IMG/VR virus record: IMGVR_UViG_3300010883_007299
Span: 1 to 64,000 of that record
DNA from: a virus
Reading direction: 5' to 3' (one strand)
DNA: 64,000 nt
The stretch's first letter is position 1. Each line of letters begins with the position of its first letter. The notes below the pieces were generated by a model that saw nothing but the letters and a program-made list of their open reading frames with translations, was not told the origin of the DNA and did not search any database. Shown in pieces: positions 1-6,721 of the stretch. A program made the position numbers and the translations under genes.

Positions 1-124
1 CCAGTAGCATTAGGACATCGAGTTCATCGCCTTTTTCGGTATTGCGTGTTGCGCCCCATAATTCATCAATACGGGTTAGAGCTTGTTTTAGCTGTGTTTT
101 ATTTTTAATCGGATTCAGTTTCAT
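1..124 (-). CDS. HigA-like antitoxin/transcription regulator N-terminus (partial, runs off window)
   Basis: Not in the ORF track. Manual translation from ATG 124 gives MKLNPIKNKTQLKQALTRIDELWGATRNTEKGDELDVLMLL, matching the HigA-type N-terminal pattern (PI..Y..AL..I..LW.A...T.EGDELDVL). Confidence 0.7.
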   Translation of the reverse strand, partial: MKLNPIKNKTQLKQALTRIDELWGATRNTEKGDELDVLMLL

Positions 125-219
125 TGTATTGATCTCAAATATTAGCAATATCCTTTATTTCATCCTTGTAAATCTTCCATCACATGGTATATTTGCAAGC
201 ATGCTTGAAAGAATACTTT

Positions 220-1470
220 TCACCGACCCACTTGTTCTAGATACTTTTCTTTAGTATCATCCCAAGACTTATATATTAGATCATCATAAAATAGTGATGT
301 ATTACTAACCTTATCATTTCCAATAAGAGATTTTATTCTCTTACTGGCATATTTATTCTTCCATAGGTCAACCAAATATTCTGTAGATGTATCAAATCGT
401 GGTATTAATTTATCATCTGTTATCTCTTGACGTAAAAACTCTGGAGTATTTTCATAGAGGTGTGAAAAATAAATACCACGTTGGTGTTTAGACTCTGTAT
501 TTTTTATCTTTAGTTGTGAATAAACAAAGCCCAACATTCTAAACTTATGGTCTCTCTTATACTTCTGTCCTTTATCGTTCAATGCAAACCATAACTCCCA
601 ATATCTAACTGGATCCTTTTTATGAACCCAATCTCTAATTTTATAGAGTGTTGGTCTAGTAGGTTCAAACACCACCTTACCAGTAGTCTTGCCCCTTTTA
701 TTCCAATGTCTTAGATTATTATACTGTGAGAAAGACCCATACAAGGATGTTGTAGTAACACCTACTAGAGTTTGGCCATACCTCTTCTTCCATGTGTTCT
801 GAATCTCATCAGACAAACACAATAGAGCAAGTAGTTTGCCGCCCACATAGTTATACCCTAAGGGTTGGGTTGGTAATATACTAGAGCCAATTGCAGTATG
901 CAATAACATTCCACCATTACGTTGTTCTCTAGTCCAACCAATAAAATTATCTCTCGGTGTTAGGTCTATAAAATCTGATGATATAGTAACAACGCCAAGA
1001 TACTTGCCGGTGGGTTTATCAACCACCAAGTAATACATATTTCTACCTATATTATTATGATTGCGTTGTGTATGGCACAACGTTCTTATAGTCTGGAACT
1101 GTTCCAACAACCAATCATTATAGTCTGTCAGAATTAACTCTGGTTCTAATTTCAGATAATCTTCCGGAGATTCTGGCATCCATATCATAGACTTTGCTTT
1201 GTCTATAGTATGTTTCTGTTTACTCTCTACCAAATGTTGCTCTTGGCCAAATAGAGTAGACACTTCCCTAGTGGGGTATTTTCTTTGTATCTCACACCAC
1301 TTTTGGTAGAGTACATATTCCTGGACAGACATAGCTGAAACATACTCCAACTCAGTCATAATAAGTTGGCGTAGTTCGTCATCGCTAAGACATTCTACTT
1401 TATTCGGGTCGTTATTTTCTAACCACTTTTCGTAGTCTTGTCTTAATCTATCGTTCCATGCATCTCTCAT
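220..1470 (-). CDS. DUF4338 / Druantia DruA-like protein
   Basis: Motifs GRNMYYLVVD..TGKYLG, RDNFIGW, P.GYNYVGGKLLALL and TTTSLYG..SQYN resemble DUF4338 proteins. Confidence 0.65.
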   Translation of the reverse strand: MRDAWNDRLRQDYEKWLENNDPNKVECLSDDELRQLIMTELEYVSAMSVQEYVLYQKWCEIQRKYPTREVSTLFGQEQHLVESKQKHTIDKAKSMIWMPESPEDYLKLEPELILTDYNDWLLEQFQTIRTLCHTQRNHNNIGRNMYYLVVDKPTGKYLGVVTISSDFIDLTPRDNFIGWTREQRNGGMLLHTAIGSSILPTQPLGYNYVGGKLLALLCLSDEIQNTWKKRYGQTLVGVTTTSLYGSFSQYNNLRHWNKRGKTTGKVVFEPTRPTLYKIRDWVHKKDPVRYWELWFALNDKGQKYKRDHKFRMLGFVYSQLKIKNTESKHQRGIYFSHLYENTPEFLRQEITDDKLIPRFDTSTEYLVDLWKNKYASKRIKSLIGNDKVSNTSLFYDDLIYKSWDDTKEKYLEQVGR

Positions 1471-2402
1471 TTAAATTTACACTGACTCATAATCTCTGTT
1501 AAACAAGCTAAAAGATTAATCTCTTGGTCAGCCACAAACGCTGACTTATATTGATACTCACCTATTGTAATAACGGCAGACGGTATAGTGCTGGGATCCA
1601 TATTATTATAAAGACTATCGTAAACCTTACGAAATATTTTCGTGGGGTCGTTGTCAATATTATCGACCACCCATTTACGAACTTTTGTAAACTCTTTCAT
1701 CTTTAGGTGGGTTATTAATTCTTTCATATTGACTTCTGAAAGATTAACAAGAATGCCAGAGTCTATTTCACCCGACACACTATACCGCTGCAATTCGTTA
1801 ATCACTCTCCGATTATCCGGAAAGTGTTTCATAATTAATTCTGCTACAACTTTGTTTTCATACTTAACATTCTCTTTATTAAGTATATCACCAACTCGTT
1901 TCATCAACTCGCTAGCCATCTTATCACGACTACCATTCAACTTAAACTCAATGACTGAACACCGAGAATGTAATGGCTCTATGATTCTATTCTTAAAGTT
2001 ACAGGTAAAAATAAACCGACAGTTACGATGGAATTCTTCTATGAACCCACGCAATGCTGGTTGTGTTGATTGTGGATTTAAATAATCAGCCTCATCAAGA
2101 ATGACTACCTTTGTTCCACCCTGCAATGATACAGTAGATGCAAACTGTTTTATCTTTGTTCTTAGAACATCAATACCAGATTCTTCACTACCATTTATAA
2201 TAATATAATCAGAATGTAATTCTTCACACAGAGCTCTTGCCACCGTGGTCTTACCAACACCAGGTCCACCTGACAATAGAAGATTAGGAATCTCCTTATT
2301 CTTTACGAATTCTAAAAACGTTTTCTTAATTGATGGTGAAAGAATACAGTCCTCAATCTTTTTCGGACGATATTCCTCCACCCATAGGATATTTTCCACC
2401 AT
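1467..2402 (-). CDS. gp44: Clamp loader large subunit (T4 gp44-like AAA+ ATPase)
   Basis: LWVEEYRP, Walker A GGPGVGKTT, Walker B VILDEAD, sensor HSRC. Likely start ATG 2402. Confidence 0.95.
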   Translation of the reverse strand: MVENILWVEEYRPKKIEDCILSPSIKKTFLEFVKNKEIPNLLLSGGPGVGKTTVARALCEELHSDYIIINGSEESGIDVLRTKIKQFASTVSLQGGTKVVILDEADYLNPQSTQPALRGFIEEFHRNCRFIFTCNFKNRIIEPLHSRCSVIEFKLNGSRDKMASELMKRVGDILNKENVKYENKVVAELIMKHFPDNRRVINELQRYSVSGEIDSGILVNLSEVNMKELITHLKMKEFTKVRKWVVDNIDNDPTKIFRKVYDSLYNNMDPSTIPSAVITIGEYQYKSAFVADQEINLLACLTEIMSQCKFK

Positions 2403-2589
2403 CTTCTGGATTCTCCACATTGTACTCTGATTTTTTACCACACCAAGGACAGAAAAACTCTCTTGAGTTTATTCCTAAGTCGGCATATAAATGATCTAGG
2501 TCGTTTGAAAAACCACCCATCGCTATACTCCACCATAACTTACACTCCGGGCAAGTAAAATGATAAAGTATTTCTATACTGTTTGACAT
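2353..2589 (-). CDS. Small zinc-ribbon protein
   Basis: CPEC and CPWC pairs; abuts the upstream pilin gene. Confidence 0.6.
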   Translation of the reverse strand: MSNSIEILYHFTCPECKLWWSIAMGGFSNDLDHLYADLGINSREFFCPWCGKKSEYNVENPEDGGKYPMGGGISSEKD

Positions 2590-2883
2590 TTATGAATCAC
2601 AAGGCACCTCTACTGTACCTGCATCACCAAGAACATAACACTTACCACCACCCGGTGGGGCGGCAGCTGCGGTAGTTGTACTTGCCATGGTTGTGCATTT
2701 TGGTAGATCAGACTCTAATGCACAATCTAAAACATCTATTCTGGACTCTGATAACAAGGCTGCTTCTTGAGCCCTGACAACATAGCCTTGATACATAGGT
2801 AGTGATATCGTGGCAAGAATGCCCATAACAGCAACTACTATCATCAATTCAATTAAACTAAACCCACCATGGTTAGTTTTCAT
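2590..2883 (-). CDS. Miniature type IV prepilin-like protein
   Basis: Class III signal [34 protein letters not shown] with Glu at +5; four Cys in the short C-terminal part; AGGAG ribosome-binding site. Confidence 0.88.
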
Positions 2884-2896
2884 TACAAGACTCCTT

Positions 2897-3541
2897 CTAG
2901 TCTACTGTGGCCTCCATGGCAATCCAATAAGATGCCACTTTACCTACCCAATTAGAAATCTTAGCAGTGGTTGAAATTTGCACACTATAATCACCACGTA
3001 CCATTTTAAGATTCTCTGATTTGAAATGAGCTGTAAACTCTGTACCTGAATGAGTTCCTAAATCTTCAGTAAAATTATTAGACGTAGAATTTTTTAAATC
3101 CGTTGCTGTAATCTTACCATTACTTAAAACTACATCAGGTAATTGCATCACTGCTGATGCTTTCAATACTTTATCCAAAACTGTTTGTGAAAGATCAACT
3201 GTCACATCACACTCTGGCGGATTAAAAACTTCAGGTGGAGTTGTTAGAATGGAAGGATCAGAATACATATATCTAATCTTTGTACTACCACCATTAACTA
3301 ACAAGTACTTGTCATTATCAAAATTGAGTTCTGCATCTGATGCTAAGGACAACACACCTAGAAACTCATTCAAATCATAAATGCCAAACTCTGTTGGAAA
3401 CGACTCTGAAACATTTGCTTCAGCCAAAATATTTTTCATTGTTGAAATTGTGCGGAGTTGATTACCCTCTTTCACCATAATGTTTTGATTGATGGTGGAA
3501 AAATTCTTCAACACACTTACTGTTTCACTACTTAATCTCAT
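2897..3541 (-). CDS. gp45: Sliding clamp (T4 gp45-like)
   Basis: [32 protein letters not shown]-terminal YWIAME. Likely start 3541. Confidence 0.95.
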
Positions 3542-3812
3542 CTTCACTCTCCGTGTCATGTATATGTAACATGATTATACCATAATGTAAAATTTTCATA
3601 AGATCGACTCTACTCTTTCCGTTCTTACGCCCATATCGTTGAGCATACTTTAAAATATTGCCCATACAAAAACCTTCACCGTGACCACAATCTTCTATGA
3701 ACTGTGTAGCCTGATACTTACGTTGGGCATAATGCTTATCATAAGTACCATCCACATATTTTTGTAATTCACGGATAACTTCATCTTCACTAAATGCATA
3801 ATTAATTGTCAT
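3528..3812 (-). CDS. DUF3310-like protein (T7 gp1.7-like nucleotide kinase family)
   Basis: HY...GFCMGNILKYAQRYGRKNG...DLMKILHY signature. Confidence 0.7.
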   Translation of the reverse strand: MTINYAFSEDEVIRELQKYVDGTYDKHYAQRKYQATQFIEDCGHGEGFCMGNILKYAQRYGRKNGKSRVDLMKILHYGIIMLHIHDTESEDEIK

Positions 3813-3817
3813 ACTAT

Positions 3818-3846
3818 ATTATCTCATAGTTTTAAACAAATGTCAA
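3818..3846 (-). promoter_or_regulatory. Sigma70-type promoter, probably giving a leaderless transcript
   Basis: TTGACA-N17-GATAAT with extended TG; ATG of the next gene is 5 nt after the -10 box. Confidence 0.75.
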
Positions 3847-3850
3847 GCGG

Positions 3851-3927
3851 AAAATGTGGGGTGAACAACCTTGGACTCTCTAGGTGTTTTGGTGTGGACC
3901 CTTGGTCGTATGGTTGTCACCCCAACA
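3851..3927 (-). ncRNA. Putative structured RNA / terminator-like element, copy A
   Basis: Stem TGTTGGGGTGACAACC / GGTTGTTCACCCCACA around a ~40-nt loop, followed by TTTT; loop motifs shared with the element at 15151-15260. Confidence 0.5.
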
Positions 3928-3932
3928 AACAA

Positions 3933-4415
3933 TTACTGGATAGAAATTGTCCGAGGTTTCTTTTCCTCTGGAATGACTCGTTCTAAATGAACGGTGAGCA
4001 TACCATTATCCATCTTAGCATCTTGTACTACCACATCGTCAGCCAAAGTCCAACTTCGACTAAACTTACGGTGAGAAATACCACGATGTAAAAGTTCACC
4101 ATCATCATCGTTGCTCCGAATACGGAAGCCTGAGATATCCTCCGACTTCTTCTCAACACTACGAACAGTCAAAACACCATCAGCCACTTCAACTTCCAAA
4201 TCATCCTTAGATAACCCAGCAAGAGCCAACTCAATAACGAAATTGAAGTCATCGTCTTGACGGATGTTATAGGGTGGAAAGCCAGAGTTTGTCTGGTGTA
4301 GAACATAGTGGTCATGTAACCGATCAAACATACGGTCAAAGCCAACTGTGTAGGGTGATAATAGACTCCGATCAAACTGATCGAATATATTTGCGATTGC
4401 TCTAGTTGTTACCAT
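3933..4415 (-). CDS. hsp20: Small heat-shock protein (Hsp20/IbpA-like)
   Basis: FPPYNI, IELALAG, HRGISHRKFSRSW, NGMLTVHLERVIPEEKKPR. Confidence 0.95.
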   Translation of the reverse strand: MVTTRAIANIFDQFDRSLLSPYTVGFDRMFDRLHDHYVLHQTNSGFPPYNIRQDDDFNFVIELALAGLSKDDLEVEVADGVLTVRSVEKKSEDISGFRIRSNDDDGELLHRGISHRKFSRSWTLADDVVVQDAKMDNGMLTVHLERVIPEEKKPRTISIQ

Positions 4416-4476
4416 TTTTAGGTCCTCCTTTTACTTCAAGCAAGGTTTAATGAAAGGCCCCAAAGGCACCTTTCTC
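4416..4476 (-). promoter_or_regulatory. ROSE-like RNA thermometer in the hsp20 leader
   Basis: Hairpin GAAAGGTGCC...GGCCTTTC, then CCTTGCT able to pair with the SD AAGGAGG; U(U/C)GCU opposite the SD is the ROSE hallmark. Confidence 0.55.
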
Positions 4477-4480
4477 CAAG

Positions 4481-4518
4481 TATTTATACAGCTTAACACA
4501 CTTTAGGTGGTTTGTCAA
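4481..4518 (-). promoter_or_regulatory. Tandem sigma70 promoter and T4 late promoter for hsp20
   Basis: TTGACA (4518-4513)-N17-TAAGCT (4495-4490), then TATAAATA (4488-4481). Confidence 0.8.
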
Positions 4519-5549
4519 CCCCCATAACTCTCCAATAACCAATTAGAAAATTGATTATTAATTAAATGATCTGCCTTATCATAATTCAAAATATCACTAG
4601 ACAACAAATTTAATTCCACTTTAAGAGTTTGTACAATATGTTTTAATTCATCCGTAGATAAATTCCAAATAGATAGATGTTCTGGATATCTAATGGTATT
4701 ATACCAAAGATCAACATTCTTTTCACCACACCACTTAACATAGTTAACCATTTCATCCCAATTATTCCTCATTGGATTCACCATAACACACAACCCAAAA
4801 GGAACTTCTTTCTTTCTATTTTCACTATAATTTTGTTTATTAATATACTCTAAAAAGATTTCAAAATTCTTCATCAACAAATCAAAATCACCATTGATTC
4901 TAATATCCTCATAGCGTTCTTTAATCAAACTATCAATACTAATATTTAAATATACGTTACAACTATCTAATAATTCTTTCACCCTATCATTATACACTGT
5001 ACCATTTGTGGCTATATTGATTTTTAAATCTGGTTTCAATATAGAAACTGTTTCACAAATCTCAAAAACTATCTTCTGTGCTAATGGTTCTCCACCATTA
5101 AATCTCAATTCTTCCAAATGTGGTATAAATTCTTCTAACTGTTTAACAAACGTATCATCATACATCATAGGCATTGGAGGCAATTTATCTCTATTCTTCC
5201 TTATACCGCTACTTAATTTTCCATTGCACATTATACATTCAAGGTTACATTGATTACTCAACTCCAACTCCATCATTGTTGGATACTTTGTAACAGAATA
5301 GGGTTCGTATGCTTTAGATAATGACCAAACATTATCATCAATATTTTTCTTACATATTCCACAAGGGCCTTCAAAAATATTATTAGATAAATCGTTTCGG
5401 AGTTTCTGGAACTTATCACCAAACCAAATATCACTAATAGAATTATCTTTACTCCATATCTCCTTCATATCCACAGTCAACCAACACGGTGCTACTGTAC
5501 CGGAGGTTGTGAAATACATATTATTAAATGGGGCTTTACAACTAGTCAT
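4515..5549 (-). CDS. Radical SAM protein with N-terminal SPASM/twitch-like domain
   Basis: CNLECIMC motif and NGGEP; N-terminal C...G.VAPCW...CGIC. Confidence 0.85.
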   Translation of the reverse strand: MTSCKAPFNNMYFTTSGTVAPCWLTVDMKEIWSKDNSISDIWFGDKFQKLRNDLSNNIFEGPCGICKKNIDDNVWSLSKAYEPYSVTKYPTMMELELSNQCNLECIMCNGKLSSGIRKNRDKLPPMPMMYDDTFVKQLEEFIPHLEELRFNGGEPLAQKIVFEICETVSILKPDLKINIATNGTVYNDRVKELLDSCNVYLNISIDSLIKERYEDIRINGDFDLLMKNFEIFLEYINKQNYSENRKKEVPFGLCVMVNPMRNNWDEMVNYVKWCGEKNVDLWYNTIRYPEHLSIWNLSTDELKHIVQTLKVELNLLSSDILNYDKADHLINNQFSNWLLESYGG

Positions 5550-5934
5550 CTTTTACTGTACAATTTGTTTTACAACACGGACTAATTTTTTCAGGATCAT
5601 CCCAAGACTCAGGTAAAGTTTTTGTATACCATTCGGAATTAATAATATCTTCTAAAGGTTTATTAAAAACATTATACTCATCTTTATTTTTATTATAATT
5701 CATCATCACTTTGTCTTTTGATGTATGATAAGCAGCTCTACCTATATCTACTAATTGATCTTCTATACCATAATGTTTTTTTGGTCCCCATTCTCCTTCT
5801 GGTACAAACACATTACCATAGAGATATAAATTATTTGCAAAATAACAACAAGGCAAAACTTGGCCATCTGGATTGACCAACAAACGCTTTGTAGTCATCC
5901 ACTCACACTTTATATTACAAGCATTCTTCTTCAA
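5542..5934 (-). CDS. Stand-alone SPASM/twitch-like Fe-S domain protein
   Basis: C...LLVNPDGQVLPCCY...CCKTNC; TTG start overlaps the upstream radical SAM gene. Confidence 0.75.
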   Translation of the reverse strand: MKKNACNIKCEWMTTKRLLVNPDGQVLPCCYFANNLYLYGNVFVPEGEWGPKKHYGIEDQLVDIGRAAYHTSKDKVMMNYNKNKDEYNVFNKPLEDIINSEWYTKTLPESWDDPEKISPCCKTNCTVKDD

Positions 5935-6721
5935 TTTCTCTCATTTGATCCAAATTATTTAAATCAAAACTCCTACAATAAAAATTTTTACCTGGCAAAT
6001 TTCTAACAGGTTTCAAAGTTTGTTTACTATCTATACTAATATCAGCTCTAATTAAAACTTTCTTTTTATCATTAGCATCTATAAGTGTAAATTCTCTTTT
6101 ATCTGGATGCCACCTATCAGATAATACATACCGTATTTTTTTCGCACCCTTCTTCTTACATATCTTAGCAATATCATATAAACTATTTTGATTATGTTGA
6201 AAGACCACACAAAATACACTAGTTGTTGATTCTGTAAAGGATAAAACTTCCATATTATTTAATATTTTCTTTAGATTTGTATTTTGTCTATAATGTGAAT
6301 GTTGTTTTTGTGTTGTACCCTCTATATCAAATATAATTTCTAATCTCTTACCGCCAAGAACACCCAAATTCCACCACCACTCTGTATCTCTGATACTACC
6401 ATTAGTGTTGATTTGAATCCATGATGAAGAATTTTCTATGATATACTTAACAATATTAAATATATCCTTATTCATTATAGGATCACCCCACGTACCACAA
6501 AGATCAAATCTTTTGATATGTTGCATTGTCGTTTCGGGAAAAGCTTTTACAAATTCTTCAAGAGACCATTGTATAAGAGGAAGCCAATCTACTTTATCAA
6601 GACCATTAGGATTTGTTCTGTGACACTGAGGACACTTAGCATTACAGTGGGTCGATATATCGAGCCACATTATTAGATCACGTTCTCTATAAAGTTCTGT
6701 GTAATCTAAAAAAGTATCCAT
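5915..6721 (-). CDS. Radical SAM protein lacking the SPASM domain
   Basis: CNAKCPQC motif, CGTWGDP, INTNGS. Confidence 0.85.
   Translation of the reverse strand: MDTFLDYTELYRERDLIMWLDISTHCNAKCPQCHRTNPNGLDKVDWLPLIQWSLEEFVKAFPETTMQHIKRFDLCGTWGDPIMNKDIFNIVKYIIENSSSWIQINTNGSIRDTEWWWNLGVLGGKRLEIIFDIEGTTQKQHSHYRQNTNLKKILNNMEVLSFTESTTSVFCVVFQHNQNSLYDIAKICKKKGAKKIRYVLSDRWHPDKREFTLIDANDKKKVLIRADISIDSKQTLKPVRNLPGKNFYCRSFDLNNLDQMREIEEECL

Follow-up and report, generated by a model that had tools for sequence, protein, structure and literature searches.

A head-less type IVa pilin gene in a marine T4-like phage clade, with a possible role as a mimic of the host pilin

Pilin-like proteins of type IV pili are encoded by several viruses. 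The protein P-FimU, encoded by F10-like Pseudomonas prophages, is built into the Pseudomonas aeruginosa pilus and blocks adsorption of tip-binding phages; the same study describes PilA-like proteins, including truncated forms of ~60 residues in six virulent Pseudomonas phages, as well as a PilA of a Xylella prophage, and proposes that phage PilAs are either incorporated into pili or inhibit their assembly (Sztanko et al., Cell Rep 2026, PMC12952977). In archaea, the pilins PilA1 and PilA2 of the SNJ2 provirus of Natrinema are assembled by the host machinery (Xiang et al., Cell Rep 2025, PMC12426801). The phage-encoded pilin mimic as a kind is already in print (PMC12952977). A preliminary description of the DNA studied here had held that known phage anti-pilus proteins target assembly components and do not mimic pilin, a view that P-FimU, the phage PilA-like proteins (PMC12952977) and the archaeal provirus pilins (PMC12426801) overturn. 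Here we analyze a 64,000-nucleotide (nt) stretch (the window) that forms positions 1 to 64,000 of the IMG/VR virus record IMGVR_UViG_3300010883_007299, itself 96,473 bases long and estimated to be 53% complete. Between the genes for the sliding clamp (gp45) and the clamp loader (gp44), the window encodes a 97-amino-acid (aa) pilin-like protein, hereafter called the mini-pilin.

The mini-pilin has the parts of a prepilin in miniature. Its open reading frame (ORF) occupies 2590-2883 on the minus strand; the preliminary description gave 2353-2883, a range that contains this ORF but also takes in the adjoining zinc-ribbon ORF at 2353-2589. The parts of the protein are encoded as follows.

2863-2883, minus strand: class III leader peptide MKTNHGG, with a predicted prepilin-peptidase cut after Gly7.
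2716-2862, minus strand: alpha-1 stalk, residues 8-56, drawn as a helix over residues 10-56 in AlphaFold2 (AF2) models and matched by profile in the PDB.
2695-2724, minus strand: first Cys pair, C54-x8-C63, with invariant Cys, in a module common to other marine-phage pilin-like proteins.
2644-2694, minus strand: linker rich in Thr, Ser, Ala, Pro and Gly, residues 64-80, whose length and sequence vary.
2593-2643, minus strand: C-terminal hairpin tail, C82-x12-C95, with homology to the tail found on full-length PilA alleles.

The prepilin peptidase site, PilA-like helix, two Cys pairs and Thr/Ala/Pro/Gly linker of the preliminary description can all be read in the sequence, Ser being added to the linker. 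After the leader comes FSLIE and a hydrophobic stretch of ~20 residues, and the four Cys stand at positions 54, 63, 82 and 95. In mature numbering, the protein has Phe1, Glu5, Gly14, Pro22, Tyr24 and Tyr27, residues that major type IVa pilins also have.

Profile comparisons place the mini-pilin among the major type IVa pilins. Its match to Pfam PF07963 N_methyl, which the preliminary description had put forward as a check, reaches 33.3 bits (cut-off 21.2; E-value 3.2e-8), and TIGR02532 is matched at 31.4 bits (cut-off 16.3). Six PHROG families with prepilin N-termini also match, including PHROG 27437 (9e-16) and phrog_3433, annotated 'pilin' (8.6e-8). The best solved relatives of the family profile in the PDB are P. 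aeruginosa PilA (8tum, 4.8e-13) and the PAK pilin (1oqw, 3.1e-12), and the mini-pilin is 69% identical over 35 aa to an Arenicellales PilA. Weak matches of the N-terminus to GspG, GspH and GspJ models (6.7e-6 to 2e-3) are what would speak for the type II secretion pseudopilus, or another PilD-dependent system, as the target in place of the type IVa pilus. We consider this very improbable: the best NCBIfam and PDB matches are to major type IVa pilins, and the alleles that sister phages carry at the same locus are bona fide PilA proteins with a Pfam Pilin domain.

The phage record offers no means of assembling a pilus. The mini-pilin is the sole N_methyl match in the 96,473-base record, and searches of that record for PilD (peptidase A24), PilC and secretin gave no match; for the PilB family nothing rose above threshold, one P-loop match falling below it. 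The preliminary description, which had found no pilus machinery in the window, was right in this respect. Because the record has no peptidase A24 gene, cleavage of the mini-pilin would require a host peptidase. The 97-aa ORF is thus, as judged from sequence, a genuine type IVa-like prepilin dependent on host machinery.

What the mini-pilin lacks is the alpha-beta globular head with its four-stranded sheet. Pfam PF00114 Pilin does not match it at E-values up to 1, and the AF2 models, at low confidence, show no more than a helix, one hairpin and, between them, a disordered linker. Mean predicted local distance difference test (pLDDT) scores were 59 for a run on 10 sequences and 56 for a run on 16; values of 72-85 were reached only for residues 11-30, and the linker stayed below 50 in both models. 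Strands 81-86 and 89-94, which make up the beta-hairpin, were drawn in both runs with low confidence. A Foldseek search of the PDB returned nothing at E-values of 0.001 or less, just the N-terminal helix of a Neisseria pilin, and ESM-atlas look-alikes of the head, all scoring below 0.9, are leads only. The subfamily of the window ends in Cys-x-Ser/Thr (CDS, CGS or CGT; 2593-2607), an ending that resembles, as a lead only, the site at which the group I pilin of P. aeruginosa is glycosylated on its C-terminal Ser.

Comparison with a related phage locus, L044, reveals where the two ends of the mini-pilin come from. The L044 PilA matches the Pfam Pilin domain at 6.3e-19, with the match running through the normal disulfide loop and a tail continuing beyond it; PF00114 also matches the pilins of L039 and of the L124 type. 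The L044 tail and the C-terminus of the mini-pilin are the same Cys-stapled hairpin, which is also present on the full-length pilin P0378. At the DNA level, the mini-pilin gene matches the L044 gene over the leader and stalk (81.5% identity over 65 nt) and again over the tail (79.5% identity over 44 nt, E-value 2e-7), and the middle does not align. Because both gene ends match L044 in this way and the two proteins share the hairpin tail, we read the mini-pilin as a head-less derivative of a full phage PilA: in its sequence, it is a phage PilA without the globular head. The invariant C82-x12-C95 brackets the predicted hairpin, and since the corresponding hairpin in L044 follows the canonical loop, it reads as an extra tail beyond that loop.

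The middle of the gene has other relatives. Its SRIDxLDCAxDPSLxKC module is common to P0038, P0039 and P0041, marine-phage pilin-like proteins of 79-239 aa with unrelated C-termini, and five further IMG/VR contigs carry genes of the P0038 type in other surroundings. Because of this shared module, the mini-pilin gene looks mosaic. Larger prepilin-type proteins occur elsewhere in marine viruses as well. Low-GC marine viral contigs, one of 322 kb, encode such proteins of 232-314 aa (L038:5001-5699; L039-L042, ~5001-5945) that have a large C-terminal domain in common; in the longer form (L039-L042) the stalk is followed by a Pfam Pilin domain, the shorter form (L038) resembles the mini-pilin over residues 1-63, and neither lies at the gp45-gp44 site. 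A 30-kb viral contig (L127, ~4013, plus strand) holds a frame of ~540 aa that opens with a prepilin-type motif, MKQQGFTLVELL, and may be a phage protein with a pilin front end.

The mini-pilin belongs to a family of at least 16 sequences in three subfamilies, at 49-100% identity. Eight close variants (74-100% identity, 96-99 aa) are in the protein database, and an exhaustive profile search adds the subfamilies P0036 (97 aa) and P0037 (88-93 aa; five members on more than 13 contigs). Alignment shows Gly-1, Phe+1, Glu+5, Pro22, Tyr24, the four Cys and the CYV...G..EV.C frame of the hairpin to be invariant in 16 of 16 members. Every indel in this alignment is in-frame and confined to the linker, which is cut to ~9 residues in the P0037 subfamily, or to the turn of the hairpin. 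Beyond the family, a tblastn search of 50,697 deposited phage records gave just five weak N-terminal matches, and a scan of genome contigs gave only N-terminal matches in unrelated bacteria, with no bacterial genome carrying the mini head. Viral contigs scanned with the mini-pilin, its alignment and P0037 yielded no match; the relatives described here were reached through zinc-ribbon, gp44 and P0378 queries. A second metagenome locus, L004, was discarded as an unrelated bacterial N_methyl protein.

Two relatives of the window, L003 and L006, have the same gene order and allow selection to be estimated. In L003 the pilin is 90% and gp45 100% identical to the window's; in L006 the pilin is 55%, gp45 72% and gp44 86% identical. 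The ratio of nonsynonymous to synonymous substitution rates (dN/dS), estimated from three DNA copies, comes to 0.42 for the pilin in the comparison with L003 and to 0.49 in that with L006; the remaining genes of the block give 0.05-0.31. The mini-pilin is constrained and yet the fastest-evolving gene of the block. Its GC content is raised (43% versus 37%) because of its Ala, Gly and Pro codons, and GC at third codon positions (GC3), at 0.29, equals that of its neighbors. Recent transfer, which the raised GC might have indicated, was rejected on this ground, and by its GC3 the mini-pilin is a long-resident gene.

These data bear on the idea that a host or phage pilA was once captured and is now being lost, the mini-pilin gene being its remnant without function. 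The mini-pilin is indeed an internally reduced version of a longer gene, some relatives have no pilin gene, and its dN/dS is the highest of the block. A remnant would nonetheless be hard to reconcile with a frame kept intact in at least 16 variants through in-frame indels only, with invariant Cys and processing-site residues, and with dN/dS below 1, ameliorated GC3 and a strong ribosome-binding site that has been kept. The decaying host fragment free of purifying selection that the preliminary description had weighed is largely excluded by the same values, and we give a remnant of any origin scant credence.

The site of the gene proved to be variable among related phages. We surveyed 80 IMG/VR viral loci whose gp44 is 63-84% identical to that of the window. 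The gp45-gp44 interval in these loci ranges from 5 to 2076 nt and mostly holds an insert, so for this phage group the preliminary description erred in calling the two genes normally adjacent. They are adjacent in the nearest isolates, Methylophilales phage Melnitz and Pelagibacter phage HTVC008M (gp44 58-66% and gp45 45-50% identical). In cyanophage Bellamy the interval is occupied. The gp45-gp44 interval is hypervariable in this phage group, and an insert there is in itself ordinary. In a more distant group (gp44 ~65% identical), the inserts have no prepilin motif. Closer to the window, the interval holds a series of alternatives.

L049: nothing.
L045-L048: the zinc-ribbon gene alone.
L124-L126: a canonical 141-aa PilA and the zinc-ribbon gene.
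L044: a 161-aa PilA and another small ORF, with no zinc-ribbon gene.
The window, L003 and L006: the mini-pilin and the zinc-ribbon gene.

The gp44 phylogeny groups these pilin genes on one lineage. Sister phages with a full PilA at this site have gp44 82-83% identical to the window's, and all pilin-bearing phages fall into one supported clade of ten (97/90). Within it, a supported subclade (97/91) unites the three phages with a mini-pilin; its sister subclade holds the full-length alleles and two pilin-less members.

The zinc-ribbon gene follows a different distribution. Its family (CPxC...CPWC) is widespread in marine viral contigs, with 16 loci, and in 15 other viral contigs it occurs without a nearby prepilin. 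The zinc-ribbon as an obligate partner of the pilin was rejected, each gene being found without the other, and for this reason we treat the two as independent.

The full-length alleles point to a host. The L044 PilA is 83% identical over 137 residues to the pilin of Arenicellales metagenome-assembled genomes (MAGs; P0222, MDP6141665.1 and others, on contigs of up to 62 kb). Full-length pilins with the hairpin tail (P0378, P0381) lie on contigs of 142-228 kb, one of them labelled as an Acidiferrobacteraceae MAG. Moreover, P0381 has a mis-called N-terminal extension with text in common with the extension of P0225, a tail-less allele of Arenicellales type, which suggests that P0381 and P0225 occupy the same bacterial locus. 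The hairpin tail is probably a feature of host alleles and not a phage invention; a phage-specific addition was rejected, as the tail is also found on the probable bacterial alleles P0378 and P0381. The 141-aa PilA of L124-L126 (L124:3998-4423 and relatives) belongs to a very abundant, microdiverse population: in marine metagenomes, relatives at 83-96% identity make up dozens of 90%-identity clusters, and one such cluster has 215 members. Among named sequences, pilins of Arenicellales or gammaproteobacterial MAGs come closest to this PilA, at 54-59% identity. Judged by the pilin genes of the sister phages, this phage clade likely infects piliated marine Gammaproteobacteria of Arenicellales type. 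The piliated proteobacterial host of the preliminary description gains support from the full PilA genes at the same locus, above all the one 83% identical to an Arenicellales pilin.

The alternation of alleles at one site admits a broader interpretation, in which the gp45-gp44 interval is a pilin cassette that tracks the pilin alleles of the host, as complete PilA, tailed PilA or head-less form. The head-less form would then be a self-sufficient minimal subunit, either built by host machinery into a thin phage-specified fiber or re-surfacing host pili with its conserved hairpin, possibly glycosylated on the Ser/Thr linker or the C-terminal Ser/Thr. If so, infected cells would gain a surface property, such as adhesion or DNA scavenging, and not merely lose a receptor. 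We regard this interpretation as improbable.

The reading that we prefer, at a probability of roughly 40%, is that the mini-pilin is a pilin mimic which, once processed by PilD, would co-polymerize through its stalk and give pili an altered or unstable surface, so that phages are excluded at the receptor. The proposed course is as follows. The mini-pilin would be transcribed early, alongside the replication genes, enter the host inner membrane and be cut after Gly7 by the host prepilin peptidase. Its PilA-type stalk would then admit it to the host type IVa pilus assembly, where it could co-polymerize with host PilA. By likeness to solved filaments, any pilin stalk would pack with PilA, whichever reading holds. 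With a head-less subunit bearing a Cys-stapled hairpin among their components, the pili of infected cells may lose or change the surface bound by pilus-binding phages, or become unstable. The infected cell would be shielded from superinfection, and progeny might be spared futile adsorption.

Several considerations weigh against this proposal. The host is proposed only through a gene of a sister phage, a head-less subunit may not polymerize, and the head is modelled at low confidence (mean pLDDT 56-59). Phages that bind the shaft might not be stopped if the major pilin were replaced only in part. The hairpin tail, present also on likely bacterial PilA alleles (P0378 and P0381, on contigs of up to 228 kb), is no phage-specific masking device, and the close relatives L045, L046 and L049 have no pilin gene at all.

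The same loss of receptor could be reached by a dominant-negative route. As a poison of assembly, the mini-pilin, processed or not, would stay out of the fibers and titrate PilD, the PilC platform, the alignment complex or the PilA pool, so that pili are no longer made or retracted. Consistent with this, the globular domain of ~100 residues in the sister alleles is missing, Sztanko et al. raise the same alternative for the 60-residue phage PilAs, and a strong promoter upstream would permit a high dosage. A pure jammer, however, needs only the stalk, yet the Cys pairs and the hairpin are conserved almost without change at 49-100% identity, and because of this conservation we favor incorporation. 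The hairpin is also present on full-length alleles, which argues that an exposed, folded part matters. We hold poisoning, the closest contender to incorporation, to be possible but unlikely.

The signals around the gene concern the first step of the preferred reading, early expression. The mini-pilin lies in a tight run of genes on the minus strand.

220-1470, minus strand: DruA-like gene, 416 aa, directly after gp44.
1467-2402, minus strand: gp44 clamp loader (PHROG 168, 5.5e-125).
2353-2589, minus strand: zinc-ribbon gene with four Cys, 78 aa.
2590-2883, minus strand: mini-prepilin coding sequence, 97 aa, with stop TAA at 2590-2592 (from the ORF list, Pfam N_methyl, TIGR02532 and PHROG).
2891-2896, minus strand: Shine-Dalgarno sequence AAGGAG, 7 nt before the mini-pilin ATG and abutting the gp45 stop.
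2897-3559, minus strand: gp45 sliding clamp (PHROG 223, 3.9e-71; Pfam gp45-slide_C).
3528-3812, minus strand: gene for a DUF3310 protein, at the head of the tight run.
3818-3846, minus strand: sigma-70-like promoter, TTGACA-17-GATAAT with TG, with 11/12 matches in a consensus scan, a pattern match only.

The mini-pilin has its own ribosome-binding site and sits with the zinc-ribbon gene between gp45 and gp44, both as first described, the flanks now being assigned by PHROG 223 and PHROG 168. Its stop abuts the ATG of the zinc-ribbon gene, whose 3' end overlaps the start of gp44 by 50 nt. That start is likely the Met at 2402, a choice guided by L006 and L044; the frame itself stays open as far as 2441. 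The promoter pattern at 3818-3846 precedes the order DUF3310, gp45, pilin, zinc-ribbon and gp44. A sequence scan found no terminator-like site between it and the mini-pilin, and an Rfam search of window positions 1-6000 gave no match. The pattern fits early transcription by the host polymerase. The preliminary description had the mini-pilin act during replication, and its place in an apparently early operon with replication genes, as the promoter match suggests, agrees with this.

The same neighborhood invites a further proposal, that the mini-pilin builds a thin pilus of its own through the host machinery, for adhesion, for aggregation near new hosts or for DNA uptake that feeds nucleotide pools. 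The gene sits in a DNA-replication block, virus-encoded pilins form dominant host filaments in Natrinema (PMC12426801), and short pilins such as Geobacter PilA-N (61 aa) are among the solved relatives of the mini-pilin. In a hypervariable interval, however, neighborhood is weak evidence, and the 96-kb record yielded no accessory pilus genes. A phage-specified filament seems to us doubtful.

Other genes near the mini-pilin deserve mention in their own right. The DruA-like gene at 220-1470 (minus strand) matches Druantia DruA/DUF4338 (Pfam PF14236, 3e-19; PADLOC DruA, 4.9e-18) and is conserved; L003 and L006 have it, as do many of the 80 related phage loci. A defense-system domain as a near-core phage gene within the clamp-loader block is odd. 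PADLOC has no model for the mini-pilin or the zinc-ribbon. Upstream of hsp20, three adjacent genes at 4515-6721 of the window (minus strand; 344, 130 and 268 aa) look radical-SAM/SPASM-like by their Cys motifs.

Among the described systems, the phage PilA-like proteins of Pseudomonas (P-PilA) are closest in kind. Like the mini-pilin, they are phage copies of a major type IV pilin, occur in virulent phages and exist in full-length and shortened forms; they too are proposed to enter pili or block their assembly, and by analogy both would exclude other phages. Unlike them, the mini-pilin belongs to a T4-like (Kyanoviridae-type) marine phage that probably infects Arenicellales-like hosts, and is no plain truncation: stalk and C-terminal Cys hairpin are kept, and a new Cys loop and Ser/Thr linker replace the head. 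P-FimU shares with the mini-pilin that it is a fast-evolving, phage-made mimic of a pilus subunit that is accepted by host machinery and acts at the level of the receptor, both of which are proposed for the mini-pilin. P-FimU, however, imitates a minor pilin located at the tip; it is a full-length protein with additional loops, and its gene is expressed from a prophage, whereas the mini-pilin is modelled on the major pilin, has its head deleted and belongs to a phage of lytic T4-like type.

More distant systems share fewer parts. SNJ2 PilA1 and PilA2 are, like the mini-pilin, virus-encoded type IV pilins without machinery of their own, compared here by the class III signal alone; they are archaeal and temperate, form dominant filaments and serve as the receptor for another virus. 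With type IVa major pilins (8tum, 1oqw, Neisseria PilE 2hi2 and MDP6141665.1) the mini-pilin shares the leader, Phe+1, Glu+5, Gly14, Pro22, Tyr24 and Tyr27, and its C-terminal Cys-x12-Cys loop is reminiscent in sequence of their disulfide-bonded D-region. Its mature length is ~90 residues compared with their ~140-155, and only they have the head and the PF00114 match. Geobacter PilA-N (61 aa; PDB 2m7g and 6vk9) is stalk-dominated like the mini-pilin and is matched by the family profile at 2.5e-9. Unlike the mini-pilin it has no Cys hairpin; it is paired with a separate PilA-C, and homology between the two is not seen beyond alpha-1.

Set against these systems, four things are new. One is a clade of marine T4-like phages whose pilin cassette occupies a fixed site, and another is an architecture in which stalk and C-terminal hairpin are kept and the head is replaced. 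The third is that full-length and head-less pilins of phages can be linked directly in evolution, and the fourth is a lead to the host. No pilin, complete host-like PilA, tailed PilA and head-less mini-pilin form a natural allelic series at one site, which shows a route by which phage pilin stubs can arise and in which stalk and C-terminal hairpin are the minimum kept. The lead to Arenicellales-like Gammaproteobacteria concerns a phage group without a cultured member. Phage-made pilus subunits as anti-phage receptor mimics have been shown only recently, and only in Pseudomonas prophages; by analogy, this locus would place the pilin-mimic strategy in abundant uncultured marine T4-like phages. 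If its function is confirmed, competition between phages at type IV pili would reach into the open ocean.

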